DNA of 52,893 bases, taken from the NCBI GenBank assembly GCA_007118045.1, contig SKTG01000068.1, positions 1 through 52,893 of the forward strand. The letters run 5' to 3'. Shown here in pieces: positions 2,089 to 52,893 of this stretch. This DNA is from Nitriliruptoraceae bacterium (GTDB taxonomy: Bacteria > Actinomycetota > Nitriliruptoria > Nitriliruptorales > Nitriliruptoraceae). The position numbers and the translations under genes were made by a program. Under the pieces are notes generated by a model that had not been told where the DNA came from, did no database searches, and saw nothing but the letters and a program-made list of their open reading frames with translations. Numbering within the stretch: the first letter of the stretch is position 1; each line of letters begins with the position of its first letter.

Positions 2089-2099
2089 CCGTGCGCGAC

Positions 2100-2849: not shown

Positions 2850-3000
2850 CGCTCACCTCCCGCGGGTCGACGGGCACTGCTCCCAGCTTCGCTCACGACG
2901 GCCACGGTGTCAGCGGTCCACGGGATGACAGTGAAGCATGCTCGATGCTAGGTTCCTGGCAACAACGGGAGTCCCCGCCGAGGGGGGTCGAAGGAGCGGG

Positions 3001-6174: not shown

Positions 6175-6248
6175 GTCCCGGGTGGCCGCGGCCCCGTCCC
6201 TCCGAACGGCCTGTTCCCTCCGATCGAGCGGTTCCGTACGGTGCGGAC

Positions 6249-12127: not shown

Positions 12128-12407
12128 CGCAAGCTCCGTGGGTCGTCGGTGCGTTCACGTCCACCGTGTCATGGGGGGTTGCAGGTGGGTTCCAGAGCGG
12201 TTGCCGACGGGCCTGCGCCGAGGTGGAGCCCGGACGTCGTCACGACGCGCGTCCTGCCTGGGCCGTCAGAACGTCTCCGTTCCCGTACCCGTCATGACCC
12301 CCGTCGGGTTCATCGGCACGAGGATGCTCACCGCCGGGCCCTTGGGCCCTGGCGTCCTCGACCGGCAGCCGTCACGGTCGGTGCACGATCTGTGGATCGA
12401 GGACAAG

Positions 12408-13856: not shown

Positions 13857-14281
13857 CCACGACCGCTCCCGAGCGAGGTCACGCGATCCGTGCCCACACC
13901 GCCGACGAGATCCTCGAGGCGTGGGGCCCGACCCGTGAGGCATGCCTCGAGGAGGCCGTGCTCGCGCTGGTCGACACCGTCGCGGCTGTGAGAGGCGTCG
14001 GGTGGTCCTGGCACCGTGAAGTGGAGCTGGCCGGCACCGACGAGGAACTGCTGGTCGCGCTGCTCGAGGAGGTCATCTATCACCTCGATGCCAGTAGCGC
14101 GGTGCCGGTGCGGGTCCGCGTCCGCCCACGTGCCAGCGGCGTGGTCGCCCACCTGTGGCTGACCGATCTCCAACGCGTCACCCCGCGAGGGCCGGCCCCG
14201 AAAGGCGTGTCCTACTCGCAACTGGCCCTGCGAGAGGAGAGCCCCGGTCGGTGGCGTTGCGCGGCCACCATCGACGTGTGA
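13853..14281 (+). CDS. archease (RtcB activator)
   Basis: 142 aa, with [25 protein letters not shown] near the N-terminus, typical of archease. ATGA overlap with the rtcB stop. Confidence 0.86.
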
Positions 14282-14352
14282 TGCGCGACACCCAGGACCC
14301 GTGAGCACGTTCCGGCGGGCTCGAGCCGGTCACTACGGCCCGGACGGGCGAC

Positions 14353-32682: not shown

Positions 32683-32953
32683 GGTGTCGGGCGACCGTAG
32701 CAAGCAGGATCCACCTACGTTCGTGCCACCTCGTCGGCCAGCACCGGCTCTCGCGCTGCACCCCACGAACGCTTGACGGACCGTCCGAGCCGTGGTCTGG
32801 TCGACCGGGCTGGAGGCCCGGAGATGTCGAGACCGACGAGGTTCAGGAGCCGCTGTTGGTGGCCTCGAGACGAACCGTGACCGGCCGTGCCCACCGTGGT
32901 GAGCACTGGCAGCACCCGATCATCGGTGCGCCGGCGATCGGGCGGGTGGGCCG

Positions 32954-38211: not shown

Positions 38212-38646
38212 CTACGGCAACCACGTCGGTGGGCTGACTGCGGGGCCCGGAGACGGGCCTTGCCTGGAACGGTCGTCCGACACGGCCACGCGCCGAACCT
38301 CGAGCACCGTGAAGCCCAGCATCGACAACCTCGCGAGGATGCCGGACAGTTCCTCAGGGTCGCGGGCAGCCCCTACCAGGACCGCCCCGTCGCGCTCGGG
38401 TTGCAGGCGGCGCAACTCCGTGAACAACCCGCTGAGCAACTCCTCCGACAGGTCCTCGGCGAGATGGAGATGGTAGGTCGCGCAGGTTCGACATCCTCCC
38501 GAGGCACCGTGGCTCGCGTCCGGGGGGCGAGGCGACGGCGATCCACCCCCTCGCCGGTGGGCTCCTCCGGCTCCCTCACCTGCTTGCACCGTGCCTCCGA
38601 ACCCTCCGTCTCCCAGCTCGGCGCGGCCTGCCAGCGCCCTGGTCAT
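38212..38646 (-). CDS. small conserved actinobacterial protein (YHLxL... ACT/ferredoxin-like fold family); start uncertain
   Basis: The C-terminal ~75 aa, TYHLHLAEDLSEELLSGLFTELRRLQPERDGAVLVGAARDPEELSGILARLSMLGFTVLEVRRV, resembles small proteins often found next to actinobacterial regulators. The Gly-rich N-terminal 60 aa has poor codon bias. The rest of the 502-aa ORF 38212-39720 is a shadow of the LuxR gene. Confidence 0.45.
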   Translation of the reverse strand: MTRALAGRAELGDGGFGGTVQAGEGAGGAHRRGGGSPSPRPPDASHGASGGCRTCATYHLHLAEDLSEELLSGLFTELRRLQPERDGAVLVGAARDPEELSGILARLSMLGFTVLEVRRVAVSDDRSRQGPSPGPAVSPPTWLP

Positions 38647-38877
38647 GGATGATCCCAACCCTGGGATGATCCCGACACCGATGCTACGTCCGGTGGCCTC
38701 ACCGTCATCACCCACCGTGGGGGACCCGGATCGAAGTGCGCCCATCCACCGCGGCCGAGGCGACGAATAGTGCGTCGGGGGATGCTGCTTCCCCGCGATC
38801 CATCGGGAACGAGACCGATGCCTATTCTCGCTAGGGTGACCGCGGATCGAGGCGACGCACGGGCCCCGAGGGACAGC

Positions 38878-41511
38878 ATGAGCGCATCCAGCGACCCGCG
38901 GCTGTCGGCAGCGGCTCCACGGCCTGCGCCAGGTGAGCTCCTCCGCCCACGGGTCCACGCCCTTCTCGACGACGCTTGCAGCGATTCGCCGTTCGTGGGG
39001 ATCATCGCTGGGGCAGGGTTCGGGAAGACGACCGCCCTGGCTGCCTGGGCCCGCGAGACGGATCGCGACGCGGACGTGATCTGGATCGATGCCGGAGAGG
39101 CCGCTACCGCACCCGGCGGTCTGATGGAAGCCATGTGGTCGGCGCTGGAGACCACCGACCTCCCTGTCGAACCCACCGGAGCTGCGTCCGCTCGTGTCGG
39201 AGGACCCAGCCCTCGCTCGCTGGACCGGATGCTGGCCGAGCGCCCTCGAGAGTTGATCCTGATCCTCGACGACCTCCAGGAGGTTCGATCGCGGCTCTCG
39301 TTGTCCTTTCTCGACCGACTGATACGCCTCATGCCGTCCACCGCGACACTCGTCATCGCCTCGCGGTGGGAGCCTCTGCTGCATCTCAACCGGCTGCGCG
39401 CCGAGGGCGGGATGCCCGAGCTCGGTCCCACGGACCTCGCGATGACGCCGGAGGAGATCCGACTCCTGTTCGAAGCTGGCGGCATCCCGTCGGATGAGCA
39501 GCAACTGGCGAACCTCGTCGAGGTGACGGAGGGATGGCCGGTGGCCGTCCGCCTCGCCCACAGCGCCGTCGCAGCCGGTGGGGACCTCGACGACGTCCTC
39601 GGGGGAGGCGGACCGGTCGGTCGGATCGCCGGGCGCTACCTCGCCGACGAGCTGTTCGACCGCCTCCCCGCGGCACACCGGGACGTCCTGGCCTGCATCA
39701 GCATCCTGGACCAGACCCACGCGGGCCTCGCTGAGGAACTGTCCGGCAACGACCTGGCCCCGGCGATCCTCGAAGAGGTCGCGGCGCGTACCGGGCTGTT
39801 CACCCAGCTACCGAGCGCTCCGGGCTGGCTTCGCCTTCACCGGCTCGCGCAGGCGTACCTGCGCACGACGCTCGAGGCCGACGGACCCCAGCGGGTGGCG
39901 GACCTGCACGACCGCGCCGCCCGATGGTTCGCCGGCCGTGGCGACCTCGCGACCGCTGTCCAGCACGCTGTCAGGTCCCGGAACGGGGCGACGATCCGGT
40001 CGATCGTCGAACAGACCGGGCTCCTCGCGCTGCTGTGTTCGGACGAACCCGGTATCCGCATCGCCAGCGAGATCGCGGCGGCTCCACGGGATGCGTGGCC
40101 GAACGGTCGGCCGCTCGTCCTGGCGGTCGCGGTCCTGGCCAGCGCGGATCCGCCCGCCGCCTCCGCCTTGCTCGAGACGGTCGATCCGGCCGCGCTGCCG
40201 TCCGAGGAGGACCGTCGACTGTTGGCGGTGGCCCGCTGCAAGGTGCTGCGCAACCAGGCCCGCATGGAGGAGGCGAGGGCGGCGCTCGCCTCCGCCTCGT
40301 GGCACGGAGCGCAGCCGACGGAGATCGCGCTCCACGACAGCGAGTTCGCCCTCGCGGGGATCAGCGACGAGAGCTACGAGCAGCTCACGCAACGTGCCGA
40401 GAACGCCTTGAGGCTCGCCCGGAGCGTCGGCGCAGATCGGCCCGCGCTCCACCTCCGAGTCGCGCTCAGCGTGCTCAGCCTCGCGCGAGGCGAACCCCGC
40501 GACGCGAAGGAGCACGCTCACGCAGCCCTCTCCCTCGGCAACCTCTTCGGTCCCGAGCTGGAGCTGGAGCTCGCGGAGGCCCGGGTCGCGTGTGACGCAG
40601 CGACGCTCGAGCTCGGGGAGGGCGCCGACCATGACCTCTGCTGCACCATCACGAGCCCCTGGACCGAGCCTGGCGCGCCCGTCCACCTCCTCGTGGCAGG
40701 TACGACGACCAACCTCCACCATCTCTGGCGAACGGGTGAGCCGCCGCGTCCGCTCCTCGATCGAGTCGATCGTGTGCTCGGTTCGATCGATCTGGCCGCT
40801 GTCTACCCGGCGATCCTCTTCGGAGCGGCACATCTGGAACTGCGGCTCGCTGAGGCGTCGCAGGACCTTCACCGGGTGCACCGGGCCGCGAGCAGGCTCC
40901 CCGACCGTTACACCGGGACCGCAGAAGCCCACGTGCTCCGCGCACAGGTGCAGCGCGTGCGACGCGCGTACCGGTCGGGACGGGACGAGCTGCGTCCGGT
41001 GATCCGCGGCGAGGTCCCGACCTTCTGGGGTGCTAGCCGCCTGCTGGTTGTCGCTCTCGATGGTGTCCTGGCTCACCTCGACGACAGTCCCGACACCGCA
41101 AGCCTGCAGGAGGCCGTGGAACTTGCGAGCGCAACCGGGCGGCGAGGGCCGTTCCTCGACCTCGGCGCGCAGATGCACCAGGCCTTGGTCGCACGCCGCG
41201 CCGCTCTGCCGTCCCATGGCGGTTTCGTCGAGGATCTCATCCAAGACCTCCGAGAACGCGATCCGATGCGACTCCCCGAGCCACTGACAGGCGCCGAGAT
41301 CCGGGTGCTCCGCCACCTCGATTCCATGGCGACGCTGCAGGAGATCGCGACCGGGCTCAACCTCAGCCGCAACACGGTCAAGACGCACGCGGCGGCGGTC
41401 TACCGCAAGCTCGACGCGCCGACGCGCCGAGAGGCGGTCACGCGTGCGCGAACGATCGGCATCCTCGGAACGCACCTGCGGCCCAGCCACGAGGACGATG
41501 CGCCCACGTGA
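38878..41511 (+). CDS. LuxR-family large ATP-binding regulator (LAL/MalT-like)
   Basis: Walker A IIAGAGFGKTTALAAW and Walker B LILILDDLQE, a long helical-repeat region, and a C-terminal LuxR HTH LTGAEIRVLRHLDSMATLQEIATGLNLSRNTVKTHAAAVYRKL. ATG 38878 has a GAGGGA Shine-Dalgarno. Confidence 0.88.
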   Translation: MSASSDPRLSAAAPRPAPGELLRPRVHALLDDACSDSPFVGIIAGAGFGKTTALAAWARETDRDADVIWIDAGEAATAPGGLMEAMWSALETTDLPVEPTGAASARVGGPSPRSLDRMLAERPRELILILDDLQEVRSRLSLSFLDRLIRLMPSTATLVIASRWEPLLHLNRLRAEGGMPELGPTDLAMTPEEIRLLFEAGGIPSDEQQLANLVEVTEGWPVAVRLAHSAVAAGGDLDDVLGGGGPVGRIAGRYLADELFDRLPAAHRDVLACISILDQTHAGLAEELSGNDLAPAILEEVAARTGLFTQLPSAPGWLRLHRLAQAYLRTTLEADGPQRVADLHDRAARWFAGRGDLATAVQHAVRSRNGATIRSIVEQTGLLALLCSDEPGIRIASEIAAAPRDAWPNGRPLVLAVAVLASADPPAASALLETVDPAALPSEEDRRLLAVARCKVLRNQARMEEARAALASASWHGAQPTEIALHDSEFALAGISDESYEQLTQRAENALRLARSVGADRPALHLRVALSVLSLARGEPRDAKEHAHAALSLGNLFGPELELELAEARVACDAATLELGEGADHDLCCTITSPWTEPGAPVHLLVAGTTTNLHHLWRTGEPPRPLLDRVDRVLGSIDLAAVYPAILFGAAHLELRLAEASQDLHRVHRAASRLPDRYTGTAEAHVLRAQVQRVRRAYRSGRDELRPVIRGEVPTFWGASRLLVVALDGVLAHLDDSPDTASLQEAVELASATGRRGPFLDLGAQMHQALVARRAALPSHGGFVEDLIQDLRERDPMRLPEPLTGAEIRVLRHLDSMATLQEIATGLNLSRNTVKTHAAAVYRKLDAPTRREAVTRARTIGILGTHLRPSHEDDAPT

Positions 41512-41584
41512 GGTCGTGGCGATCCGGGTCGGGGCTGAGCCGCCGACCCGGGCCCGCCGTTCCGCCTTCGCCGGACGGGAACGC

Positions 41585-42071
41585 TCACTCCGCCGCGAAG
41601 ACCTCGCGGAGCGCCTGTTCCTCCTCCGAGTTCAGGTTCGTGTGGATCAGCTCGCCATCCCTCGGAACGCGCTCGGCCACCTTGTCGACGACCGCCTCCT
41701 GGGACAGCAGGAAGAGGGCCGACGTGCCCGGGGTGATGGCGTCACGGGTGCGTCGGATGAAATCATCATCGATCCCGACATCGCTCAGAGAGCCGCTCAG
41801 CGCACCCGTCGCAGCGCCCACGACCATCCCGAGCAGGGGGCACGAAGAAGATCAGACCGAACAGCAGCCCCCAGAAGGAACCGCTCAGTGCGCCAGCTGC
41901 GGTCAGGTTGTGCAACTGTCGGGTCTTCGGCTTCTTTCGGGACGGATCCCACTCGACGATGGCAGCATCGACGATCTGGATCAGTCCCTCCTTCTGCAGT
42001 TCAGCCAGGGTGTCCTTCGCCCGCTCTGCGCCAGCGGCGTCGTCGTACTTCCACACGGTCATGGTTGCCAT
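41585..42071 (-). pseudogene. DUF1269 membrane protein interrupted by a +1 frameshift in a G5/C5 run
   Basis: MATMTVWKYDDAAGAERAKDTLAELQKEGLIQIVDAAIVEW...NLTAAGALSGSFWGLLFGLIFFVP is in one frame, and (LLG)MVVGAATGALSGSLSDVGIDDDFIRRTRDAITPGTSALFLLS... is in the next. The junction is at the homopolymer at 41836-41840. Confidence 0.68.
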
Positions 42072-42250
42072 AGGAGCTCGCCCTTTCCCACGGTCGTGAC
42101 GTTCCACGGTCGTCCAGGTCGATCGATCGAGGCCGGGACGAGATGACGGGCGGCGCAGGCGTCAACGCTTCGGCCCACGCATACACCCGTAGCCCTCGAC
42201 CCGATCGGCGTGACGACGCGGAGGGTTCCTGAGCCGGGCGGGATGAGGCC

Positions 42251-42267
42251 TCACCCATACCGGGTGA
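42251..42267. repeat. palindromic element copy C: TCACCCATACCGGGTGA
   Basis: Inverted repeat TCACCC-N5-GGGTGA followed by CGCAGG, about 240 nt upstream of ATG 42508. Confidence 0.6.
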
Positions 42268-42323
42268 CGCAGGTGCGGCTCGCGAGCCTGGTCGGGAGGA
42301 CGCCGTCTCCGCCAGCTGTCGAT

Positions 42324-42349
42324 GTCCGTCTCACCCATCGCGGGTGACG
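42324..42349. repeat. palindromic element copy A: GTCCGTCTCACCCATCGCGGGTGACG
   Basis: Matches 25 of 26 nt of the element at 46947-46972. The core is TCACCC-ATCGC-GGGTGA, 161 nt upstream of the catalase-related gene. Confidence 0.7.
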
Positions 42350-42507
42350 TCGAAGGTACGAGGGCGGGTGACGCTGTCGGCCGCTCTGACCTGACCGGGC
42401 TGGCCCCAGCCCATCGTGATCGACCGGTGAGGGGTCGAGACGGAGGTGCACCGAGAGCGTCACAACCTGGAACGGGTGGGTGACGGAACCAGGAGGAACG
42501 AAGCGCG

Positions 42508-43644
42508 ATGCCACAGGATCTCGTGAAGTACTCGCCCGACGTCGAGCGACCAGAACCGGACTTCGACGAGCACCTCGAGACGGTCATCGAGGCGACCAAG
42601 GCATACATCGAGCGATCTGTCGAGAGCGAGGGGGTGGGTCGAGCCACACGCGATGCACACGCGAAAGGCTTCGGGCTGGCGCGGGCGGAAGTGGACATCC
42701 TGGACGACCTGCCCGCCGAGTACGCCCAGGGCATCTACTCGGAGCCCGGGCGGCACGAGGCGCTGATCCGCTTCTCCAACGGTTCGGCCCACTCGGGGTC
42801 TGACGCAGCGATCGGCGACGTCGTGATGGGCATGGGCCTGAAGATCTTCGGGATCGAGGGCGGGAAGCTGCTCGACGACGAGCCGCACTGCACCACCTTC
42901 GACTACGCGATGATCAACGCACCGATCTTCTTCTGCAACACCGTGCGGCACTACGTGTTCATACAGAAGCTGTTCCTGAGCGCCGGCGATTACTTCGCCA
43001 GGGGTCGGCCGGGCCTGCACGATTTCCTCTACGACTGGGTGACGGGCGAGGGCACGCTCGAGAAGGAGGATTGGGCCTGGGACGAACTCGCGGCGATCCT
43101 GTCGTACGTCCGGGTGCAGCCGGTCAACCTGCTGCTGTCCACCTACTGGACGATGGGTGCCCAACGCCACGGAGACTACGTGGCAAAGATCCGAGTGGCT
43201 CCCACCCCAACGGCCGCCGAGACGGTGGTTCGGCGCCATCTCGACCCGAAGACCGACATCGAGGTGTTCCGTCCCGCCCTCGTCGCAGAGCTTCGGGAAC
43301 GACCGTATGAGTTCGATATCCAGGTGCAGCTCTGCGCGGACCTGAAGAGGATGCCTGTCGAGGACCTCACCGTGCAGTGGCCGGAGGGGCTCTCCCCGTT
43401 CGTGACGGTTGCGAAGGTGCGCTTGCCGCAGCAAGACATCTCCGGAGATGACATCCAGGAGGCGATGGATGCCACGTCGATCACGCCGTGGCGTTCCACC
43501 GAGGAGCACCGTCCGTTGGGCAACCTCCAGCGTGCGCGCAGGGAGGTGTACCGGCAGTCGTCGATGCTGCGTCATGCACTGAACCATCAGGCTCGTAAGG
43601 AGCCCCGCACCCTTGCCGAGGTGTTCGGCGGCGCACCGGATTGA
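42508..43644 (+). CDS. catalase-related small heme protein (catalase-family peroxidase-like)
   Basis: 378 aa. Distal-site-like GRATRDAHAKGFG and proximal-Tyr region PLGNLQRARREVYRQSS. AGGAGG Shine-Dalgarno. Confidence 0.82.
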   Translation: MPQDLVKYSPDVERPEPDFDEHLETVIEATKAYIERSVESEGVGRATRDAHAKGFGLARAEVDILDDLPAEYAQGIYSEPGRHEALIRFSNGSAHSGSDAAIGDVVMGMGLKIFGIEGGKLLDDEPHCTTFDYAMINAPIFFCNTVRHYVFIQKLFLSAGDYFARGRPGLHDFLYDWVTGEGTLEKEDWAWDELAAILSYVRVQPVNLLLSTYWTMGAQRHGDYVAKIRVAPTPTAAETVVRRHLDPKTDIEVFRPALVAELRERPYEFDIQVQLCADLKRMPVEDLTVQWPEGLSPFVTVAKVRLPQQDISGDDIQEAMDATSITPWRSTEEHRPLGNLQRARREVYRQSSMLRHALNHQARKEPRTLAEVFGGAPD

Positions 43645-43681
43645 TGGTGCCCGCCTGGCCTCCACGCCTCACGAGGCGAGC

Positions 43682-44662
43682 ATGACGCCGCGCCGAGTGG
43701 TGCTCATCCTGTTCGCGATCGCCCCCATGCTGATCCTGAGCGCGACGGCGTGGTCGGAGAACGCCACGTTGTTCTATCTCGGCATGCTTCCGGCAGCGGT
43801 CGGACTGTCGATCAGCGTGCGCGTGGCGGCAGTGGGTGGCGTGCTGACCGGGGTACTGATGATGCTGGCCGTCCCCTTGCGCGAGGAACCGCTCGCGGGA
43901 GCCTTGTTCATGGCTGCGATCGGCGCGGTGGTCGGGCTCTCGTCGATGCGCGGATGGCACGGTCTCGGCGGCTACGCAGGGCCTCAAACGTCCTTCGCCT
44001 TGCTCGGAGCACCGATGGTCACGATCGTGTCGGGGACCGTCGCGATCGATTCGTCGTGGACTGCGACGACGACGATGGGTGGTTCGGTCGCAGCGGGGGG
44101 CCTGTGGATCGCGTTCATCGGCTGGCTGGCTCGTCATGAGCTCCCGACCCACGAGCCACACATCGTGCCGAGGGTCGTCGCGCAGTACTTCGCCGGCGCG
44201 TTGGCGGCCCTCGTCGGGATCGGGGCCTTCGTGGTGATGCAGTGGTCCACCTCGTCCGACGCATGGTGGCTCCTACTCACGCTGTTCGTCGTGGTCCAAC
44301 CGTTCTACAGCGCGACACTGCAACGCAGCACCTATCGGGTGCTCGGGACGGTAATCGGTGCGGTGATCGCAGCACTCGTCGCCGAGCTGCTCGGGGAGCT
44401 ACCGGTCGTCGTCGCGATCGTGACCCTGATGGTCGTGGCAGGAGCGGTTTGGGCTCAGATGACGCAGCCGTACTGGGTGTACGTGACGTTCCTGACACCG
44501 GCCGTGATCCTCCCGACGTCGAGCCAGACCGAGGCGGTGTTGTTCGCCGACGTTCAACGGGTTGCGTTCACCGTCTGCGCAGCTGCGGTCGCCGTCGGCG
44601 TGCTGACCATCGGCCACCGCCTCGTGACGCGACATCAGCCGCAGTCGTCCACTCGTCCGTGA
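43682..44662 (+). CDS. FUSC/ArAE-like integral membrane protein
   Basis: ~326 aa, highly hydrophobic, with WWLLLTLFVVVQPFYSATLQRSTYRVLGTVIGAVIA typical of fusaric-acid-resistance-like domains. Confidence 0.68.
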   Translation: MTPRRVVLILFAIAPMLILSATAWSENATLFYLGMLPAAVGLSISVRVAAVGGVLTGVLMMLAVPLREEPLAGALFMAAIGAVVGLSSMRGWHGLGGYAGPQTSFALLGAPMVTIVSGTVAIDSSWTATTTMGGSVAAGGLWIAFIGWLARHELPTHEPHIVPRVVAQYFAGALAALVGIGAFVVMQWSTSSDAWWLLLTLFVVVQPFYSATLQRSTYRVLGTVIGAVIAALVAELLGELPVVVAIVTLMVVAGAVWAQMTQPYWVYVTFLTPAVILPTSSQTEAVLFADVQRVAFTVCAAAVAVGVLTIGHRLVTRHQPQSSTRP

Positions 44663-44741
44663 CCGATGGTCTCGTGGACTCGGATGCTCCCAGCCCCACA
44701 GCCTCGGAAGAACGCTGAGCCCCGAAGGAAGAGCCAACCTG

Positions 44742-46121
44742 ATGAAGAAGCGCCAGCCATCCGCCGACCCTTCCGTCGTGCTCCCGGCTTTCACCGAGAG
44801 GTTGAGTACCGACCCGATCCCCAGCCTCCGTCTGTCGGACGATGGCGCCGACCCCGAGGTCGCGTATCGGTTCATCCACGACGAACTGATGCTCGACGGG
44901 AACTCACGGCTCAATCTCGCGACGTTCGTGACGACCTGGATGGACCCCCAGGCCGAGCGGCTGATGGCCGAGACCTTCGACAAGAACATGATCGACAAGG
45001 ACGAGTACCCGTCGACCGCAGAGATCGAGACGCGCTGCGTCAATATCGTCGCGGACCTCTTCCACGCGGAGGGTCTGTCAGAATCCGATGCCACCTCCGC
45101 AACTGGCGTGTCCACTCTCGGTTCGTCCGAGGCCGTGATGCTCGCCGGGCTGGCGATGAAATGGCGCTGGCGGGCAGCTCGAGAAGCTGCAGGTGAGGAC
45201 GCATCGAAGCCGAACTTCGTGCTGGGCTCCAACGTCCAGGTCGTATGGGAGAAGTTCTGCCGCTACTTCGACGTCGAGCCCAAGTACCTGCCGATGGAAC
45301 CGGGTCGCTACGTCGTCACACCCGAGCAGGTTCGCTCGGCGGTGGACGAGAACACCATCGGCGTCCTCGCGATCCTCGGCACGACCTTCACGGGGGAACT
45401 GGAGCCGATCAGCGAGATCGCGGCGGTTCTCGACGAACTCGCCGCGGGAGGACTGGACGTCCCCTTGCATGTCGACGCAGCAAGCGGTGGGTTCGTCGTG
45501 CCCTTCCTGCATCCCGAACTCGAGTGGGACTTCCGCAACCCACGCGTCGCGTCGATCAACGTGAGCGGACACAAGTACGGGCTCACCTATCCGGGCATCG
45601 GCTTCGTGATCTGGCGCTCGAAGGAGTATCTACCTGAGGACCTGGTCTTCCACGTCAACTACCTCGGTGGCGACATGCCCACCTTCACGTTGAACTTCTC
45701 GCGACCCGGTAACCAGGTGGTCGGCCAGTACTACAACTTCGTTCGACTCGGCTACCAGGGGTACAGACGGATCATGGAGTCACTGCGCGATTCGGCGACG
45801 ATGCTCTCCGAGCGGATCGCAGCGGTCGACGGCCTCAACGTGATCACCGACGGCAGCGCGATGCCGGTGCTGTCGTTCAACTGTAGCGACGACCTCGATC
45901 TCACCGTGTTCGACATCTCACACGAGTTGCGCGCACGTGGCTTCCAGGTCCCGGCATACACCATGCCCGCTGATGCGCAGGATGTCGCCGTCCTACGGGT
46001 CGTGATCCGCGAGGGCTTCAACCGCGACATGACGTTCAAGCTCGGCGTCGCGATCGAGGAGGTCGTGGCCAAACTGAAGGCCGAGTCGTCGCCGACTCGA
46101 CCCAGTTCCTTCGCACACTGA
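44742..46121 (+). CDS. gadB: glutamate decarboxylase
   Basis: ELMLDGNSRLNLATFVTTWMDPQAERLM, NMIDKDEYPSTAEIE, SSEAVMLAGLA, HVDAASGGFV and SINVSGHKYGL (PLP lysine). Confidence 0.93.
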   Translation: MKKRQPSADPSVVLPAFTERLSTDPIPSLRLSDDGADPEVAYRFIHDELMLDGNSRLNLATFVTTWMDPQAERLMAETFDKNMIDKDEYPSTAEIETRCVNIVADLFHAEGLSESDATSATGVSTLGSSEAVMLAGLAMKWRWRAAREAAGEDASKPNFVLGSNVQVVWEKFCRYFDVEPKYLPMEPGRYVVTPEQVRSAVDENTIGVLAILGTTFTGELEPISEIAAVLDELAAGGLDVPLHVDAASGGFVVPFLHPELEWDFRNPRVASINVSGHKYGLTYPGIGFVIWRSKEYLPEDLVFHVNYLGGDMPTFTLNFSRPGNQVVGQYYNFVRLGYQGYRRIMESLRDSATMLSERIAAVDGLNVITDGSAMPVLSFNCSDDLDLTVFDISHELRARGFQVPAYTMPADAQDVAVLRVVIREGFNRDMTFKLGVAIEEVVAKLKAESSPTRPSSFAH

Positions 46122-46139
46122 CCCTCCACTGGAGCGACC

Positions 46140-46808
46140 GTGTCCGTGACCTCGGCCCCTCGGGATGGTCCCCACCCCCCGTGGTCGATCGCTCCGACAC
46201 TTCGGGGGCAGTCCTGGTCGTTCATGATCGGCTCGGGCTTGTTCGCGTTGGGGTCGGCTCCGTGGCTCGGCGACCAGCTCGGGACGGTTGGAGCGAACGT
46301 CGCCTTCTTCGTCGGGGCGTGGTTCTTCACCGCTGGCGCGTTCATCCAGCTGGCGTTGAGCGGGCCGTACCGAAGTGAGGCTCCTGGCCACATCGGGCTC
46401 CGGGCGGCATGGCTCGCAGCCGCCGTGCAGCTTCTGGGCACCCTGCTCTTCAACATCAGTACCGGGGCAGCCCTGCACTCCCAGTCCGTACGTGCCGAAC
46501 GCCTCGATGTCTGGGTGCCGAACGCCGAAGGGTCGGTCGCCTTCCTGATCAGTGCCTGCATCGCCATGATCCCCATGCTTCGCGACGGGCAGTACTGGCG
46601 TCCGACATCGCCCGGCTGGTTGAGCACGTGGTTCAACATGCTCGGCTCGATCGCCTTCGGCGTCTCATCAGTTGGCGCGATCATCCTGACGAACGGGGAA
46701 CTGCTCAACGCCACGTTGGCGTCCGCTGGCACGTTCGTCGGGGCGCTCTTCTTCCTCGCCACCAGTGGGGTGATGCTGCCAACGGCACACACCGGACGTC
46801 ACGCATGA
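46140..46808 (+). CDS. YrhK-like multi-pass membrane protein (internal duplication)
   Basis: 222 aa with ~6 TM segments and a repeated GS-x-F-hydrophobic pattern (IGSGLFALGS..FVGAWFFTAG and EGSVAFLIS..LGSIAFGVS..FVGALFFLAT). GTG start with a GGAG Shine-Dalgarno, 18 nt after gadB. Confidence 0.62.
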   Translation: MSVTSAPRDGPHPPWSIAPTLRGQSWSFMIGSGLFALGSAPWLGDQLGTVGANVAFFVGAWFFTAGAFIQLALSGPYRSEAPGHIGLRAAWLAAAVQLLGTLLFNISTGAALHSQSVRAERLDVWVPNAEGSVAFLISACIAMIPMLRDGQYWRPTSPGWLSTWFNMLGSIAFGVSSVGAIILTNGELLNATLASAGTFVGALFFLATSGVMLPTAHTGRHA

Positions 46809-46946
46809 GGGATCGTCAAGACATGACCCGCCCGAGCGCACCGTCGCCACTGGAGTCGGCCAGGTCGATCCGCAGGCTCTAGTCGTCGCCACCACCGTGC
46901 GGTTGCAAGCGTCGGGGCGCGAATGACGGCTCGCGCCGGAGCAACC

Positions 46947-46972
46947 GTCCATCTCACCCATCGCGGGTGACG
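46947..46972. repeat. palindromic element copy B: GTCCATCTCACCCATCGCGGGTGACG
   Basis: Near-identical to 42324-42349. Lies 188 nt upstream of ATG 47158. Confidence 0.7.
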
Positions 46973-47157
46973 CTGCACGGACGACGCTGAGCGACCCTGC
47001 CGATCGTCCTGATCCGAGCGCTGATGCCGTCCGTAGGGGAACCCGACGGCGAGAACGTCAGGTCAGGTGGATCGGCCGTTCGGAGCTTCTGTGGAGAGCG
47101 GGGAGACATCTGCCGGCCGAGTGACGAGGCGATCCTCAACCGAAAGGAACACCGAAC

Positions 47158-47769
47158 ATGAGTCACGACTCGAGCATCGCCCCCAAGCTTGAGGAGATCA
47201 AGCAAGAGATCGACCAGGCGCTCCCGAACGCTTCACAGGAGGCGAAGGACACGCTGTTAGGGGGTGTGGAGGCACAGCTGCGTTCGGGCCAGGTGGAACC
47301 CGGCACGACGAGCGCTGGAAGGGTCGGGAGCCGGGCCGGGAAGGTGTCGGAGCTCACGGTCATCGCTCCGCTCAAGCCGGGCGGCGCCGACCGGCTCCGC
47401 AGTCTCTTCAAGCTCATGAACGGATACTTCGGTGCGGCCGACCGGGTCGGCACCGTCCATGACATGCGCTTCGTCTTCTTGCCAGGGGACGAGCAGATGC
47501 TCTTCGCCACCGCCTTCGACGGCGACTGGGACTCCTACATCGACGATTTCGCGACGCAGATCCCGGTCGAGATGGACCTTCTCTTCTCCGAGGTCGAGGG
47601 CTGGCCAGGGATCCATGATCCCTCGGTCAAGGACTTCATCGTCGAGTACCAGCACACTGCGGAGGGCTGGTACGTCGCCAGCCCGGATCTGACCGTCGCC
47701 GACACCCGACGCGCTCAGAAGAAGGCGGAGATCGTCGACGAGTTGCTGGACAAGGTCGGTTCTCTGTGA
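47158..47769 (+). CDS. conserved hypothetical protein, co-oriented with and 44 nt upstream of the DyP peroxidase
   Basis: 203 aa. AAAGGAA Shine-Dalgarno and good codon bias after a hydrophilic N-terminal 60 aa. The core is TVIAPLKPGG..RLRSLFKLM...VGTVHDMRFVFLPGDEQMLFATAFDGDWDSYIDDFATQIP. I cannot name the family. Confidence 0.68.
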   Translation: MSHDSSIAPKLEEIKQEIDQALPNASQEAKDTLLGGVEAQLRSGQVEPGTTSAGRVGSRAGKVSELTVIAPLKPGGADRLRSLFKLMNGYFGAADRVGTVHDMRFVFLPGDEQMLFATAFDGDWDSYIDDFATQIPVEMDLLFSEVEGWPGIHDPSVKDFIVEYQHTAEGWYVASPDLTVADTRRAQKKAEIVDELLDKVGSL

Positions 47770-47813
47770 AGGTCGGCGAGATGCACGTCCACCGCAGCCC
47801 GCACGGGTAGATC

Positions 47814-49148
47814 ATGGTGGATGCGACCGACGCGATCGACCTCGACGACCTGCAGAGCCTCATCGTGTTCCGCCGACCTGCGCCCTACTGGGGCAGTTTC
47901 GTTCTGGCCCGTTTCGGCGGCGCGGCGCAGGGACGAGCAGCGCTGCGGGGATTGGTCCCGCACGTCGTCTCGGCGGCGGAGTGGGGAGCTGGTCGGCGCA
48001 ACCTCAGCGTGGCGGTCGGCTTGACCTACGAGGGCTTGGCTGCCCTGGGCCTGCCGGCCGAGTCACTGGACGGCTTCCCCGTTCAGTTGCGTGACGGGAT
48101 GGCAGCACGCGCAAGCCGCCTCGGCGATCTCGGCGATAGCGCGCCGGACAACTGGCAGTCCCCGTTCGGTACGGGCAGCGTCCATGCGCTCGTTCTGATC
48201 ACGGCAGACAGCGAAGCGTTGTGGCGTGAGAGTCTTGCCGCAGCGGGCAGGGCCATCGACGAGGCTGGGTTGCAGATCCTGGGACGCCAACATGTTGCTG
48301 CCCTTGCCGGCGCCCGAACCACCTTCGGGTACCGCGACGGCATCAGCTTCCCCAACATCGCCGGCCTTCCCGAATCGCCGTTCACCGCGCCCGAGCGGCC
48401 GATCGCCACCGGGGAGTTCCTGTTGGGCCATCCCAGCGAGAGCGGAGCGGTACTCCCGATGCCACAGCCCGACGTACTCGGCCGGAACGGGATCTACGCC
48501 GGTGTCCGCAAGATACACACCCGTGTTGCGGCCTTTCGAAGCTTCCTGAAGGCCAACTCCCAAGACGCTGCTGGCGAGGAACTCCTCGCCGCGAAGATGG
48601 TCGGACGCTGGCGTAGCGGAACGCCGCTCAGCCTCGCACCCGCGGCCGACGATCCTTCATTGGTGACCGAACCCGATCGGCTGAACGATTTCACCTACGC
48701 AGACGATCTCCAAGGACTCATCTGCCCGCACGGGGCGCACATCCGGCGGATGAACCCGCGCGACAGCTCCCTGGCCACGCTCGCCGACCCTCGTATCCAT
48801 CGGATCATCCGCCAAGGAGCCGTCTACGGTCCGGCGCTCCCCGACGACGTCCTCGACGACGACGGCGCTGAGCGAGGCCTGTTCTTCACCTTCATGAGCG
48901 CTCGTGCTGACGCGCTGGAGTTCCTGAAGCGAGAGTGGATCGATGACGGCAACACCTTCAACCTCGGGTCCGAGCGAGACCCGATCGCTGGTAACAACGA
49001 TGATGACGGAGCCACGTTCACAATCCCGGCGCGACCCGTGCGCCGACGTCTTCGCGGCCTCGAACGGTTCACCGTCACCAGAGGGGGTGAGTACGCCTTC
49101 GTGCCCAGCCTGACAGCACTGCGTTGGCTGGCAGATCCCGAACCGTGA
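47814..49148 (+). CDS. DyP-type heme peroxidase
   Basis: The GXXDG motif FGYRDGISFP, the proximal His region CPHGAHIRRMNPRD, the distal Arg region HRIIRQGAVYGP, and RGLFFTFMSARADALEFLKREW. No Tat signal or encapsulin-type tail is evident. Confidence 0.88.
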   Translation: MVDATDAIDLDDLQSLIVFRRPAPYWGSFVLARFGGAAQGRAALRGLVPHVVSAAEWGAGRRNLSVAVGLTYEGLAALGLPAESLDGFPVQLRDGMAARASRLGDLGDSAPDNWQSPFGTGSVHALVLITADSEALWRESLAAAGRAIDEAGLQILGRQHVAALAGARTTFGYRDGISFPNIAGLPESPFTAPERPIATGEFLLGHPSESGAVLPMPQPDVLGRNGIYAGVRKIHTRVAAFRSFLKANSQDAAGEELLAAKMVGRWRSGTPLSLAPAADDPSLVTEPDRLNDFTYADDLQGLICPHGAHIRRMNPRDSSLATLADPRIHRIIRQGAVYGPALPDDVLDDDGAERGLFFTFMSARADALEFLKREWIDDGNTFNLGSERDPIAGNNDDDGATFTIPARPVRRRLRGLERFTVTRGGEYAFVPSLTALRWLADPEP

Positions 49149-49293
49149 GGCGGGAGCAAGCCGGGAGGCCGCAGGAACCTGTCAGGTATCTGCCCAACGT
49201 CGAACGACCGGGACCGAACCCCTTGGAGGTAGCCATGCCCCACCGTCGTGGGCTCCGTGATCGCACGGCGTGTCAACCTACGGCGCGCTTCCG

Positions 49294-50559
49294 ATGAGCG
49301 AGCCGCAACCGACCATGCTCGTCAAGAACGTCCAGGTGTTCGACGGGGTCGGTGCCGACCTCATCGAGGGCCACGTCGTCGTGAGCGGCAGCAAGATCGC
49401 GGACATCTCCGATGCATCGCCGACCATCACCGACGGCGTTCAGGTCATCGATGGTGACGGCCGAGTCCTGATGCCCGGTCTCACCGACGCCCACTGTCAC
49501 GTCATGATGATGTGCCACTCGATGGAGGAGATGACGACCGCCGACATCGGCTCGGTCTATGCGAACACGATCGCGGCAGCGAACCGCACGCTGATGCGCG
49601 GCTTCACCACCGTGCGCGACGCCGGTGGGCCGATGTTCGGCATCCAGCAGGCGATCGACCAGGGCGTGATCCCCGGCCCACGCATCTATCCGAGCGGGGC
49701 GATGATCTCCCAGACGTCCGGCCACGGTGACTTCTCGTTGGTCTACGACGTCGCCACGGCTCTCGGGGGTACTCCACCTCGCGGCGAGAACGTCGGGATG
49801 ACACTGGTCGCCGACGGTCACGATCGGGTCCTCGCCGCGGCCCGTGAACAGCTCAAGAAGGGCGCCACGCAGATCAAACTCATGATCGGAGGTGGCGTCA
49901 CCTCGCCGTACGACCCGCTGGAGACCGTCCAGTTCACGCCTGAGGAGATCCGTGCCGCAGTGAGAACGGCGAGAGACTACGGAACCTACGTGCTCGCACA
50001 CGTCTACAACGTCGAAGGCATCCACCGAGGGATCGAAGCTGGCGTGCGTTCGATCGAACATGGACACCTCGCCGACGAGGACACGGTGAGGTTCATGGCC
50101 GGCAAGGACGTCTGGTTGAGCACGCAGCCGTTCGTGGTCCACGATCACCATTTCGATGACCCTCGAGCCCAAGCCAGGCACGAACAGGTCGCCTCGGGCA
50201 CCAGCAACCTGTACGAATGGGCCAAGAAGTACGGAGTCAACACCGCGTTCGGCACCGACATCCTCTTAGAGCCTGACAAGGAGTTCCACCAGATCGTGAT
50301 GTTCGCCCGCCTCGCGGAGTTCATGGAACCGATCGAAGCGCTCCGGATGGCAACGTCGGTCAACGCCGAACTCTTCCGGATGTGCGGTTTCCGCGACCCC
50401 TACATCGACGCACCGCTCGGTGTGATCCAGCCCGGCGCGTGGGCCGACTTCCTGCTCGTCGACGGCGATCCGACGACCGACCTCAGCCTCTTCAACGACC
50501 CTGACGCGAACATCCGGGTGATCGTCAAGGACGGTTTCGCCCACAAGAACTCGCTGTGA
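49294..50559 (+). CDS. amidohydrolase-family metal-dependent hydrolase
   Basis: MLVKNVQVFDG..., VLMPGLTDAHCHV (HxH metal site), IKLMIGGG, AHVYN, IEHG and FGTD. The start is ambiguous (GTG 49270, ATG 49294 or ATG 49315). Confidence 0.84.
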   Translation: MSEPQPTMLVKNVQVFDGVGADLIEGHVVVSGSKIADISDASPTITDGVQVIDGDGRVLMPGLTDAHCHVMMMCHSMEEMTTADIGSVYANTIAAANRTLMRGFTTVRDAGGPMFGIQQAIDQGVIPGPRIYPSGAMISQTSGHGDFSLVYDVATALGGTPPRGENVGMTLVADGHDRVLAAAREQLKKGATQIKLMIGGGVTSPYDPLETVQFTPEEIRAAVRTARDYGTYVLAHVYNVEGIHRGIEAGVRSIEHGHLADEDTVRFMAGKDVWLSTQPFVVHDHHFDDPRAQARHEQVASGTSNLYEWAKKYGVNTAFGTDILLEPDKEFHQIVMFARLAEFMEPIEALRMATSVNAELFRMCGFRDPYIDAPLGVIQPGAWADFLLVDGDPTTDLSLFNDPDANIRVIVKDGFAHKNSL

Positions 50560-50954
50560 CCGGTGCCTGTCCACTCTCAGCACCGCAGTTGCTGGGCATC
50601 CGACGTCGCCCCGCCGCGGTGCGGGTGACGCAGGCAAGGTTCGCCAGCACTGGGCTGGGGGCCGCCGCGCCGCCCGCCCCGGCGCATCGCGATCGACCGG
50701 AGCGGGGGTCGGACCGGCGTGCGCCGAGGGCGACGTGCCGCGGAGCCATCAGGTTGGTGGCCCAAGGAGGCTCGCGCCGGTCATGAGGATCGGTGTAACC
50801 AGCAGTGCGGCGCTCCGAGCATCCATGCGAACACGACGTCGTGTCGTCGTTCCTGCGCAGGATCGTCGCCCATCCCAGCTGCCGTCGAACCGGTATCGGC
50901 TGGACGCTGGTCGAGCATCTCGAGGCCACGCCTGACGTCGAGCTAGCGGGCCAC

Positions 50955-50983
50955 GCTGGGCGCCCCAGTCCAGGGCGCCCAGC
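50955..50983. terminator. perfect 11-bp-stem hairpin (GCTGGGCGCCC-cagtcca-GGGCGCCCAGC)
   Basis: Lies 28 nt beyond the stop (51011) of the minus-strand 5'-nucleotidase gene. Could terminate transcription from either direction. Confidence 0.55.
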
Positions 50984-51010
50984 GATGTCTCGGTCTCGAC
51001 CGCGAACGGC

Positions 51011-52893
51011 TCACTCTACGAGGATCGGCTCACCTTCGAAGGTGTGCACCCAGTTGTGGATGCGCCAATCGTCAGCGGGGTCGATGACCTCGTTGTCCTG
51101 CACCCACTCGACGAACAGGTCCGGTGGGTGCTGGAACTCGCTGTAGACGACCTCCAGGTCAGGAAGCGGACCACCGCCGCCACCGTTGATGTTGTAGTTG
51201 GTGGTGGCCAGCACGAACTCGTCGTCCCCACCGATCGGTTCACCCTCGAACGCGGCCTTGGCAACCCGCTCGCCGGGCTCCTGACCGAGGTCGAACTCGA
51301 TCTCCAACGGGTAGGTGGGGGCGAAGTACCACTGGAGCCCACCGATCGACTCATGCGGTCCGGCGTGATCGAGCGTGTCGTGGAAGCTCACGCTCCACTC
51401 GAGGTAGTCGATGACGTCCTCACCGCTGGCCTTCACGGCCTTGAGCACGTTGTTCTCGTAGTTGTAGAGACCGAAGACGTCACGGATCAGGAGTTCACCC
51501 TCCTCCAAGCCGAGGTTGGTGTTGAGCGGCGGCGAGGCCGAGAGCACGGGCAGGTCCTCGTGCTGGCTGCCTTCCAGCGCCTGCTCGACCTCCTCCTGCT
51601 GCACGATGTCCATCCAGTCCGTCGCAGCGACGTCCTCGATGAGCGAACGCTCGAGCGGGAGATCCTCGGTGGCCTCACCGATCGGGGTGTCGAGCCAGTC
51701 CCGCACCGTCTGGACGTCGTCCTCGACGAGCTCGACAACCGCGGCATCCTCCTCGTAGTTCCCGGCGTCGACCTCCTCATGGGCGATGTCGCTGATCGTC
51801 CACTGGCCGCGAACCTTGGTCAGGTCCAGATCGATGATGCTGCTCCAGGTGCCGTCGGTGCCTTTCATGGCCACCAGCACGTCCTCGCCGGTTTCCTCGT
51901 TCTCGATCCACGCGCTGCGTTCGCTGGTGTGCCCGGCGAGCACGATGTCGATACCGGCAACCTGCTCTGCGAGAGGTGCACCGAACTCGTCCACACCGGC
52001 ATGGACGCCCACGAGGACGACGTCGGCCTGCTCCTCGAGCTTCGGGACGTACTCCTGGGCGGTTTCGACAGGATCCAGGAACTCGACCTTGCCCGCGACG
52101 TGGTGGCGGTCCCACACGGCAGACTCTGGATGGGTCAGCCCCAGAAAGGCGACATCGATCGGCTTGTGGCCCCTCATCTCGACCCGGTGGGTGGAGTACG
52201 GCTCGTACATCGGCTCGCCGGTCTCGACGTCGAGCGCGTTGGCTGCGAGCATCGGGGCTTCGACCTGATCGGCGAACGCATCCAGCACGTCGATACCGTA
52301 GTTCCACTCGTGGTTCCCGGTCGACCACGCATCCCACCCCACGTGGTTGACGACCTTGGCCATCGGGTGCATCTCACCCGTCTCGTGGAAGGGCTCATGC
52401 ACCTGGAAGTAGTGGGTGAACGGCGTGCGCTGGATCGTGTCACCGGTGTCGAACAGCAGCGTCTGCTCTTCGCCCCGGTCCTCGCGGATCTCGTTCATCA
52501 TCGTCGAGATCCGCGCGACACCACGTTCCTCCCCCTCCGGGAAGGGCTCGTCCGCACGCCAGTCCAGGTCGATCGCCTTGCCGTGCAGGTGGCCGGAGTT
52601 GACGATGGTCAACTGCGCAACCGCCGCATCGCTCGCAGCGAGAACGAGCGAGGCTGCCTGGTCACGCTGGAGCATGCCGCGTGGGGCGTAGGTCGTGGGT
52701 GTGGTCCCGTTCACGATGCCGAGGTCGTACAAGGCGTTGATGTTGGGGGCGTGGACGCTGTCGGCCGAGACGTCCTCGAACGGCCCGTCGGCGATGCCCT
52801 CCACGTCCAGCCAGCCGGCGAGCACCGAGGCCGTCTGGGCACGACTGATGGACGCGGACGGTCGGTAGGTGCCATCCCCGAACCCGCTGATCA
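51011..52893 (-). CDS. SLH-domain-anchored bifunctional metallophosphatase/5'-nucleotidase (UshA/CpdB-like), 5' end outside the window
   Basis: The frame is open to the window edge. SLH-like repeats (FEDVSADSVHAPNINALYDLGIVNGTT...YAPRGMLQRDQAASLV). Metallophosphatase motifs (NSGHLHG, DTGDTIQ, GNHEWNYG, GHTSE). A C-terminal 5'-nucleotidase substrate domain (ATTNYNINGGGG). Confidence 0.87.
   Translation of the reverse strand, partial: ISGFGDGTYRPSASISRAQTASVLAGWLDVEGIADGPFEDVSADSVHAPNINALYDLGIVNGTTPTTYAPRGMLQRDQAASLVLAASDAAVAQLTIVNSGHLHGKAIDLDWRADEPFPEGEERGVARISTMMNEIREDRGEEQTLLFDTGDTIQRTPFTHYFQVHEPFHETGEMHPMAKVVNHVGWDAWSTGNHEWNYGIDVLDAFADQVEAPMLAANALDVETGEPMYEPYSTHRVEMRGHKPIDVAFLGLTHPESAVWDRHHVAGKVEFLDPVETAQEYVPKLEEQADVVLVGVHAGVDEFGAPLAEQVAGIDIVLAGHTSERSAWIENEETGEDVLVAMKGTDGTWSSIIDLDLTKVRGQWTISDIAHEEVDAGNYEEDAAVVELVEDDVQTVRDWLDTPIGEATEDLPLERSLIEDVAATDWMDIVQQEEVEQALEGSQHEDLPVLSASPPLNTNLGLEEGELLIRDVFGLYNYENNVLKAVKASGEDVIDYLEWSVSFHDTLDHAGPHESIGGLQWYFAPTYPLEIEFDLGQEPGERVAKAAFEGEPIGGDDEFVLATTNYNINGGGGGPLPDLEVVYSEFQHPPDLFVEWVQDNEVIDPADDWRIHNWVHTFEGEPILVE

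Follow-up and report, generated by a model that had tools for sequence, protein, structure and literature searches.

Gene content of the cluster and position of the boxes

The window analyzed here, a 52,893-nt stretch of high-GC actinobacterial DNA from a Nitriliruptoraceae bacterium (contig SKTG01000068.1), carries a 12-kb gene cluster in which a 17-bp palindrome, hereafter the box, recurs. Its core forms a perfect inverted repeat, TCACCC-N5-GGGTGA, at three positions (42251, 42331 and 46954). On the comparative evidence described below, the box is a real, conserved cis-regulatory element of promoters, and it is probably the class II activator site of the MalT-type large ATP-binding regulator of the LuxR family (LAL) that the same cluster encodes (38878-41511). 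The compared loci and contigs are labeled with L-numbers, and several of them are short metagenome contigs; L100 is a metagenome contig that is 99.4% identical to the window. The genes and boxes of the cluster are as follows.

38212-38646, minus strand: small open reading frame (ORF) of 144 aa, function unknown, divergent from the LAL gene; matches a 144-aa JGI-called gene in L100; predicted target of the 38708 box
38708-38724, unstranded: one-mismatch box TCACCCACCGTGGGGGA in the gap that separates the small ORF from the LAL gene; -10-like hexamer toward the minus-strand ORF
38878-41511, plus strand: MalT-type LAL regulator, 877 aa (NCBIfam MalT, E=4e-46; Pfam GerE); candidate box-binding activator
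41585-42071, minus strand: DUF1269 membrane-protein gene, frameshifted by an extra G at 41836 (six-frame reading; weak Pfam DUF1269 match; intact 161-aa gene in L100)
42251-42267, unstranded: perfect box TCACCCATACCGGGTGA, assigned to the DUF1269 promoter, leftward
42331-42347, unstranded: perfect box TCACCCATCGCGGGTGA, promoter of the catalase-like operon; aligned with the boxes of L055, L094, L095 and L096
42508-43644, plus strand: catalase-related heme protein, 378 aa (profile match to PDB 3e4w; invariant motifs)
43613-44662, plus strand: FUSC_2-family membrane protein, start codon uncertain (Pfam FUSC_2, E=5e-13; 326-aa JGI product in L100)
44742-46121, plus strand: glutamate decarboxylase (TIGR01788, E=3.5e-193)
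46140-46808, plus strand: YrhK-like membrane protein, start codon uncertain (weak Pfam YrhK match; L100 gene call)
46954-46970, unstranded: perfect box TCACCCATCGCGGGTGA, predicted internal promoter ahead of the 203-aa/DyP/amidohydrolase unit
47158-47769, plus strand: 203-aa protein, function unknown; partner of the catalase-like protein and DyP
47814-49148, plus strand: DyP-type peroxidase (TIGR01413, E=3.7e-24; Pfam DyP_N)
49270-50559, plus strand: amidohydrolase, Xaa-Pro dipeptidase-like (Pfam Amidohydro_1; NCBIfam NF051886)
50623-50634, unstranded: stump of a fifth box, GGGTGACGCAGG, with the left arm and spacer gone; the full TCACCCATACCGGGTGACGCAGG is found at L100 22065

The frameshift in the DUF1269 gene was located by a base-by-base list of differences between the window and L100, and it reflects either a real pseudogene or an assembly error. 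Divergent small ORFs of 87-124 aa occupy the position of the 38212-38646 ORF in L094, L095, L097 and L099, as compared by position and size alone.

Copies of the box and their chance expectation

Two 26-nt copies, GTCCGTCTCACCCATCGCGGGTGACG (42324-42349) and GTCCATCTCACCCATCGCGGGTGACG (46947-46972), are identical at 25 of 26 nt, and their similarity extends over approximately 74 nt with 73% identity (repeat family D4). A third copy, TCACCCATACCGGGTGACGCAGG, lies at 42251-42273. The palindrome ends 161 nt before the ATG at 42508 in the 42331 copy and 188 nt before the ATG at 47158 in the 46954 copy. These sequences and coordinates, the 25/26 match and the perfect core repeat had been reported in the original prediction, and all were confirmed in the window.

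In the whole window, the perfect pattern TCACCC-N5-GGGTGA occurs three times, compared with 0.01 matches expected from 100 dinucleotide-preserving shuffles, none of which (0/100) reaches three. When one mismatch is allowed, four matches are found versus 0.19 expected, and the added site is the box at 38708; when two are allowed, the extra matches appear at the chance level only. All four boxes are intergenic, and the perfect ones are confined to the one 12-kb cluster, which holds four boxes and one stump in total. The half-site GGGTGACG recurs at 42366, 42478 and 50623, as had been noted from the sequence, although its copies are to be read differently. The copies at 42366 and 42478 are no independent elements: the former overlaps a predicted -10 hexamer, and the latter lies within the 5' leader in a stretch (GGGTGACGGAAC) that recurs in L094 only among the orthologous upstream regions. 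The copy at 50623 belongs to a truncated box.

This distribution bears on whether the palindrome could be a generic dispersed repeat, similar to repetitive extragenic palindromes or miniature inverted-repeat transposable elements, or the -35/-10 element of an alternative sigma factor. Promoter segments have indeed been copied within the cluster: the 46954 copy resembles the 42331 copy, and L100 22065 (window 50623) lies in a mosaic of the DUF1269 promoter region. However, no further copy with one mismatch or fewer is present in the other 40 kb of the window, and no target-site duplications or terminal structure are observed. An exact-pattern scan of 185,579 genomes with CTCACCCATNNNGGGTGACG yielded 54 loci, nearly all with single matches and unrelated flanks, which is about the chance level by a rough estimate; L051 (three boxes) and L007 (two) stand out. 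In the window and the compared loci, the motif is not scattered irrespective of gene context, the outcome that had been named in advance as contradicting a regulatory role. As for a sigma factor, the gap of 22 nt to the -10-like hexamer described below is too long, and the conservation of the left arm would lack an explanation. A dispersed repeat or a sigma-factor element is therefore very improbable.

Box anatomy and predicted promoter geometry

The spacing of the two half-sites is strict. In 20 of 20 perfect inverted repeats from 12 loci, the spacer is 5 nt long, and none has a spacer of 1-4 or 6-9 nt; the length is also constantly 5 nt over 27 sites from 11 loci. The spacer sequence is free to vary between genomes, whereas the arms are constant. 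Where an arm deviates, the change affects one arm only, is kept in orthologs and is never compensated in the other arm (GGGCGA and GGGGGA at the LAL-proximal box; TCACCT).

For the analysis of the promoter geometry, 27 sites were each oriented to the presumed target gene and aligned without gaps. A hexamer of the form nAnnnT begins at +23 after the box in 19 of the 27 sites, at +22 in four and at +24 in three, which accounts for 26 of 27. Other offsets score 0-3, and the side averted from the gene scores 1 at +23. Because at least nine of these promoters are mutually unrelated, common ancestry cannot explain the offset pattern. If the hexamer is set as positions -12 to -7, the box would span approximately -51 to -35, with its center near -43, and the predicted start, as derived from the hexamer position, would lie approximately 34-35 nt from the box end. 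Two of the hexamers in the window are the following.

42370-42375, plus strand: predicted -10-like hexamer GACGCT, +23 from the box end; predicted start near 42382, leader of approximately 126 nt
46993-46998, plus strand: predicted -10-like hexamer GACCCT, +23 from the box end; predicted start near 47005

The G, A and T of GACGCT are invariant in seven of seven aligned upstream regions. On the DUF1269 side, CAAGAT (L094) and GAACAT (L095) are located at +23, and AACCCT in the window at +24. At the 38708 box, the hexamer TAGCAT (38681-38686, minus strand) is found 22 nt away, on the side of the small ORF. A sigma-70 consensus scan of 41400-47300 returned no promoter, and no -35 consensus is present there.

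Three further candidates were considered and rejected. A SigB/SigF-type promoter, with GGGTGA serving as a GGGTAY-like -10, has no conserved -35 at 14-16 nt upstream; moreover, the left arm is conserved like the right one and a separate -10-like hexamer lies 22 nt downstream. A promoter of the extracytoplasmic function type (GTCC...CGTC) was discarded on the flanks, which are not conserved in orthologs. A CsoR/RicR-like operator, with an ACCC-N5-GGGT core, was dropped since no CsoR-family gene is present in the annotated parts of the window and loci.

The palindrome had been proposed to be either the operator of a dimeric regulator or a hairpin in the 5' untranslated region, and the observations above favor the former, namely a putative protein-binding site. 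As an RNA hairpin acting in the leader through stability, attenuation or protein binding, the repeat could fold into a stem of 6 bp and a loop of 5 nt (-9.3 to -12.7 kcal/mol), and read-through from the upstream operon would transcribe the 46954 copy. The predicted start, however, lies approximately 35 nt downstream of the box, and the two 26-mers fold at only -9.3 kcal/mol, with z-scores of -1.4 to -2.2. The conserved single-arm changes GGGCGA, GGGGGA and TCACCT break the pairing with no compensatory change, the boxes occur in either orientation relative to the target gene, and an Rfam scan of 41500-51500 gave no match at E<=1. A functional hairpin is thus highly unlikely, and the palindrome is better regarded as a candidate DNA site for a dimeric protein.

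Boxes in related loci

Within the species collection, the closest genome is that of a Nitriliruptoraceae metagenome-assembled genome (MAG; L055, extended as L103), with a syntenic cluster and 90% identity in the catalase-like protein. Each ortholog contig shows the same cluster to its limit; L098, L099 and L101 end before or within the catalase-like gene. All seven lineages (the window, L055/L103, L094, L095, L096, L097 and L099) have a perfect or one-mismatch box ahead of the catalase-like gene. A box on the DUF1269 side of the divergent intergenic region is shared by the window, L094 (7289) and L095 (4424), and a one-mismatch box between the LAL gene and the divergent small ORF by the window, L094 (3770), L095 (1061), L097 (2512) and L099 (794). 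Boxes past the amidohydrolase gene, ahead of small ORFs and a SulP transporter, are found in L094, L095, L096 and L103. L094, L095 and L096 contain three to five boxes each. The absence of the motif upstream of orthologous genes in relatives, which had been listed as a refuting observation, is therefore not what is seen.

The internal box between the YrhK-like and 203-aa genes occurs only in the window/L100 and L096 (4952). To call the 46954 copy specific to the lineage of the window would be too strong: L096 has the orthologous internal box, and L094, L095 and L103 are without it.

Beyond this clade, a catalase-like/DyP pair in L064 (a Pseudonocardia MAG) is separated from a divergent FUSC_2 gene by a region with three box-like sites, of which two carry one mismatch and the third carries two; a fourth site, with one mismatch, is located further upstream. 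Two of the one-mismatch sites, 161 nt and approximately 1.7 kb upstream of the catalase-like gene, combine mixed half-sites, TCATCC...GGGTGA and TCACCC...GGATGA, and can be seen as bridging the present box and that of Actinoplanes MalT. No box was detected at the catalase-like genes of Arthrobacter, Streptomyces or non-actinobacteria among the catalase-like loci compared.

The MalT-type LAL as the candidate box-binding activator

The LAL protein comprises a STAND NTPase (Walker A GAGFGKT, Walker B ILILDD), a MalT winged-helix domain, a helical sensor region and a GerE/LuxR helix-turn-helix (HTH) domain. A database protein, P0001, is identical to it and carries PF25873 (WHD_MalT) and PF00196. 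Orthologs in the protein database show identities of 100, 75, 73, 72, 67, 63 and 62%, and the contigs of all of these save the 67% hit were compared. A search of the genome collection returned relatives of 46% identity or less only, over short segments.

On every contig compared, the LAL ortholog (62-75% identity) lies within the same cluster, and every orthologous cluster combines boxes at DUF1269, the catalase-like operon and other units with a MalT-type LAL gene whose product has the Walker A/B motifs, the MalT winged-helix domain and the GerE HTH. The LAL gene is upstream of the cluster in L094, L095, L097/L098, L099 and L100/L101, and downstream of the amidohydrolase gene in L096. A MalT-type LAL is the sole regulator common to all related clusters. 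The neighboring LuxR/LAL protein had been suggested as a partner for a binding check, and it is now the best candidate for the regulator.

Boxes also adjoin LAL homologs that were picked by protein similarity alone, in L086, L088 and L102. In L102 (Micromonospora, LT607753.1), a 33%-identical LAL is flanked by one-mismatch boxes at 9921, 13891 and 14678, which adjoin BON-domain, AhpC/redoxin-like and DsbA-like genes. This cultured Micromonospora could be a tractable model for this type of box. In L051, three perfect boxes and extra hexamers surround a LuxR-TPR gene, DUF7144 and DUF1269.

Some additional observations concern loci found in these searches. No ATPase domain was detected in the L051 LuxR-TPR protein. 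The divergent region beside its gene (2424-2520) is dense in TCACCC/GGGTGA hexamers; among its elements are an everted pair, the zero-spacer palindrome TCACCCGGGTGA and one perfect 6-5-6 box. At +23 from this 6-5-6 box, no -10-like hexamer is found on either side. Neither box type is present in the Actinoplanes sp. locus L090, which was selected by HTH similarity.

Taken together with the promoter geometry, this constant association suggests the following mechanism. A ligand and ATP would switch the STAND protein on, and two GerE-type HTH domains would then bind the two hexamers of a box centered approximately 43 bp upstream of the start, in place of a -35 element. The bound LAL would recruit RNA polymerase to promoters that have a weak -10 (nAnnnT) only, that is, by class II activation. 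In the window, four units would be switched on: the small ORF at 38212-38646, DUF1269, the catalase-like/FUSC/glutamate decarboxylase/YrhK operon and the 203-aa/DyP/amidohydrolase unit.

Alternatively, the LAL or another protein could bind at the same position as a repressor, keeping the -35 region blocked until a signal releases it. Overlap with the predicted -35 region places the box where repressors also act, and the consensus promoter scan of the region was empty. However, the lack of a recognizable -35 and the weak G/T-A-n3-T -10 hexamers are typical of activator-dependent promoters, and LAL proteins, MalT included, generally act as activators. Additionally, activation has been shown by experiment for the Actinoplanes homolog, whose geometry is the same (PMC7567727). 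Repression is accordingly given little probability, and activation by the LAL is preferred.

The identity of the binding protein was considered separately, as an unlinked GerE-type regulator, such as a BldM-like orphan response regulator, may bind the box with the LAL as a bystander. The BldM homodimer box TCACcCgnncGgGTGA, which was footprinted, has identical half-sites (PMC4125116), and the LAL of L103 is a distant paralog. All 20 perfect sites, however, have a spacer of 5 nt and none has one of 4 nt, no response-regulator gene is present in the annotated parts of the window and related clusters, and the MalT-type LAL is the one regulator that all clusters have in common. The 6-5-6 spacing and the distance to the predicted start match the Actinoplanes MalT box. 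A BldM-like binder is unlikely on these grounds, and the LAL remains the favored candidate.

Several points weigh against assigning the box to the LAL as its activator. The support is comparative throughout, the site counts for this organism are limited to the window, and a box that overlaps the -35 could equally suit a repressor. Since BldM uses identical half-sites, the half-site sequence alone cannot name the binder. The box nearest to the LAL gene (38708) is oriented to the divergent ORF, with its -10-like hexamer on the opposite strand, and LAL autoregulation is therefore not claimed. Finally, L103 encodes a full-length LAL paralog on the opposite strand, just past the amidohydrolase gene (12733-15630), which is only 32-35% identical while the cluster proteins are 76-93% identical; this divergence indicates that the regulator and its targets are without strict co-evolution. 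A regulator replacement, in which the distant paralog stands instead of the ortholog, is possible in L103. In that contig, the cluster is followed by a one-mismatch box (11351), a duplicated fragment of the amidohydrolase gene (12232-12468) and then the distant paralog.

The catalase-like, 203-aa and DyP proteins

The catalase-like protein (42508-43644) has no Pfam or NCBIfam match, and an exact-sequence look-up returned no record. A profile built from 13 homologs matches PDB 3e4w (E=7e-4), which we take to be a mycobacterial catalase-related protein, named "putative uncharacterized protein" by its depositors. The motifs RDAHAKG, IRFSNGS and R-x3-Y-R-x-S are invariant in 13 of 13 homologs. The profile match and these motifs uphold the label "catalase-related" that the gene had been given. 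The 203-aa protein likewise has no family match in Pfam or NCBIfam.

Among 31 loci selected by similarity to the catalase-like protein, at least two members of the triad (catalase-like, 203-aa and DyP) are found together in 20, and the 203-aa gene is included in 18. This neighborhood is seen in Chloroflexota, Acidobacteriota, Verrucomicrobiota, Myxococcota, Pseudomonadota and Actinomycetota (L056-L082), which suggests that the three proteins form an uncharacterized heme module. As the triad genes are neighbors in many phyla, the shared box would reflect one module under one regulator rather than two independent peroxide-responsive loci. The two peroxidase loci of the window are in this way shown as parts of a conserved triad.

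In the clade of the window, the FUSC_2, glutamate decarboxylase and YrhK genes separate the catalase-like gene from the 203-aa and DyP genes. The whole stretch contains a single box in L094, L095 and L103, where only 51-82 nt separate the YrhK gene from the 203-aa gene; it probably forms one operon there. In the window/L100 and L096, a second, internal promoter copy is located in a gap of approximately 340 nt.

The original prediction placed the two loci in a shared peroxide, heme or redox regulon. The link between the catalase-like and DyP loci is supported, whereas the specific restriction to peroxide, heme or redox functions is not, because boxes are also located at DUF1269, the small ORF and the FUSC/glutamate decarboxylase/YrhK genes, and at small ORFs and SulP in relatives.

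Copy history of the promoter segments

A comparison with L100 reveals how one box was lost from the window. L100 contains a complete box at 22065 with a 23-nt identity to the 42251 box, and the sequence around it is a mosaic copy of the promoter region of DUF1269 (L100 approximately 22016-22160; window 42071-42113, 42250-42273 and 42403-42437). Approximately 330 nt of L100 (21745-22074) are missing from the window at 50622/50623, where only GGGTGACGCAGG is kept. The missing piece contains a RelE/ParE-like gene fragment (...YRIVYE...), just upstream of the 22065 box, and the left box arm. The mosaic copy in L100 and the stump in the window indicate that promoter segments with a box have been both copied and trimmed in this cluster.

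The paired promoter copies (42324-42349 and 46947-46972 in the window; 329-355 and 4947-4973 in L096) share their immediate flanks and spacer within each genome. The spacer is ATCGC in both window copies, and ACGGC and ACCGC (4/5 identical) in L096. The outer flanks group across genomes by type, as catalase-type or 203-type. This pattern hints, tentatively, that local gene conversion may have occurred between the promoter copies.

Other features of the window

The region at 31186-34372, which is approximately 5 kb upstream of the cluster, includes a DUF2252 gene together with a second decarboxylase dependent on pyridoxal phosphate. The counterpart region of A. missouriensis includes a DUF2252 gene, according to a table in the Actinoplanes paper (PMC7567727). 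The pattern TCACCC-N10-GGGTGA is found at 31743, inside the DUF2252 gene of the window, and is probably due to chance.

Positions 1-9239 contain two large STAND-type regulators that share sequence blocks: an NB-ARC/TPR protein (1-2088), which runs off the start of the window, and a 1344-aa SARP-type protein (5205-9239; BTAD, Trans_reg_C, AAA and TPR). Repeat families D12, D16 and D17 correspond to paralogous segments of the two proteins.

Comparison with known systems

The box had been described as resembling no known operator consensus. This view is not sustained, as the MalT box of Actinoplanes has the same 6-5-6 arrangement with 5/6 bases per half-site in common (PMC7567727), and the half-sites of the BldM box are identical (PMC4125116).

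In Streptomyces venezuelae, the footprinted group I box is bound by BldM, a GerE-type response regulator (PMC4125116). It shares with the box described here the identical hexamer half-sites, the palindrome and binding by a homodimer with a GerE-type HTH. The BldM box is 16 bp long with a 4-nt spacer, whereas the 20 perfect sites here have a 5-nt spacer and none has one of 4 nt. The protein that binds it is a small, orphan response regulator of development rather than a LAL, and no such gene was seen near the clusters.

The lux boxes of LuxR-type regulators are dyads near -42.5 that replace the -35 element, and a dimer with a GerE-type HTH acts on them by class II activation. They differ from the box in their length of 20 bp and their sequence, and they are bound by an acyl-homoserine-lactone receptor rather than by a STAND ATPase.

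The LAL has the domain organization of E. coli MalT, an activator: a STAND NTPase, a sensor region and a GerE HTH. The E. coli/Klebsiella MalT box is GGGGA(T/G)GAGG, for which PMC7567727 cites Richet and Raibaud 1989 and Vidal-Ingigliardi et al. 1991. Its core hexamer, GGA(T/G)GA, agrees with GGGTGA at 5/6 positions, and the promoter-proximal box overlaps the -35. The E. coli box is an asymmetric decamer that occurs as repeats of the core hexamer, whereas the sites here are single symmetric inverted repeats; the target genes here have no relation to maltose.

The closest counterpart is found in Actinoplanes sp. SE50/110, in which the LuxR/MalT-type regulator MalT (ACSP50_3915) activates 40 of the 51 genes of a contiguous region (PMC7567727). 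Its box, TCATCC-5nt-GGATGA, was related by its authors to the E. coli box; it overlaps the -35 in 17 mapped promoters, with its 3' end 34.4 +/- 1.0 nt from the mapped transcription starts, and the regulon includes three DUF1269 genes and dipeptidases (PMC7567727). The window displays the same 6-5-6 inverted repeat (TCAYCC/GGRTGA in common), a MalT-type LAL gene in the region and several boxes and units around it. The -35 overlap and the distance of approximately 34 nt, mapped there, are predicted here. In both cases, many boxes extend over one contiguous region, and the regulon, a predicted one here, includes DUF1269 proteins and dipeptidase-like enzymes. The differences are the C/G in the half-site here in place of the T/A in Actinoplanes; the targets, which here include the catalase-like/203-aa/DyP triad and glutamate decarboxylase; and the size, approximately 10 genes with four to five boxes versus 51 genes with 17 boxes. 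The host here is Nitriliruptoraceae-like and obtained from metagenomes only, and the Actinoplanes case is experimental where the present one is sequence-based.

Since this box arrangement has already been described in Actinoplanes, the present regulon prediction is solid but fairly ordinary. It assigns a candidate regulator, a box consensus and predicted promoters to a cluster of an uncultured soda-lake-type actinobacterium, and it adds a second half-site variant and distant lineages to the one actinobacterial MalT box that has been studied by experiment. Loci that combine boxes with a LAL/LuxR-type gene occur in Nitriliruptoraceae-like bacteria, in Micromonospora, in a Streptosporangiales MAG and in unclassified MAGs; in the Pseudonocardia MAG, the catalase-like/DyP pair is likewise flanked by boxes. 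It is conceivable, although rather doubtful at present, that TCACCC/GGGTGA-box LAL regulons constitute a widespread, unrecognized stress or dormancy circuit of Actinomycetota, here with a captured heme triad and glutamate decarboxylase; if so, the LAL sensor domain would point to the signal and the substrate of the triad. The extension beyond Actinoplanes suggests a general signature for MalT-type LAL activators, namely 6-5-6 GGRTGA boxes at -43, and this signature could help to annotate the many orphan LAL regulators of actinomycetes, including those of biosynthetic clusters.

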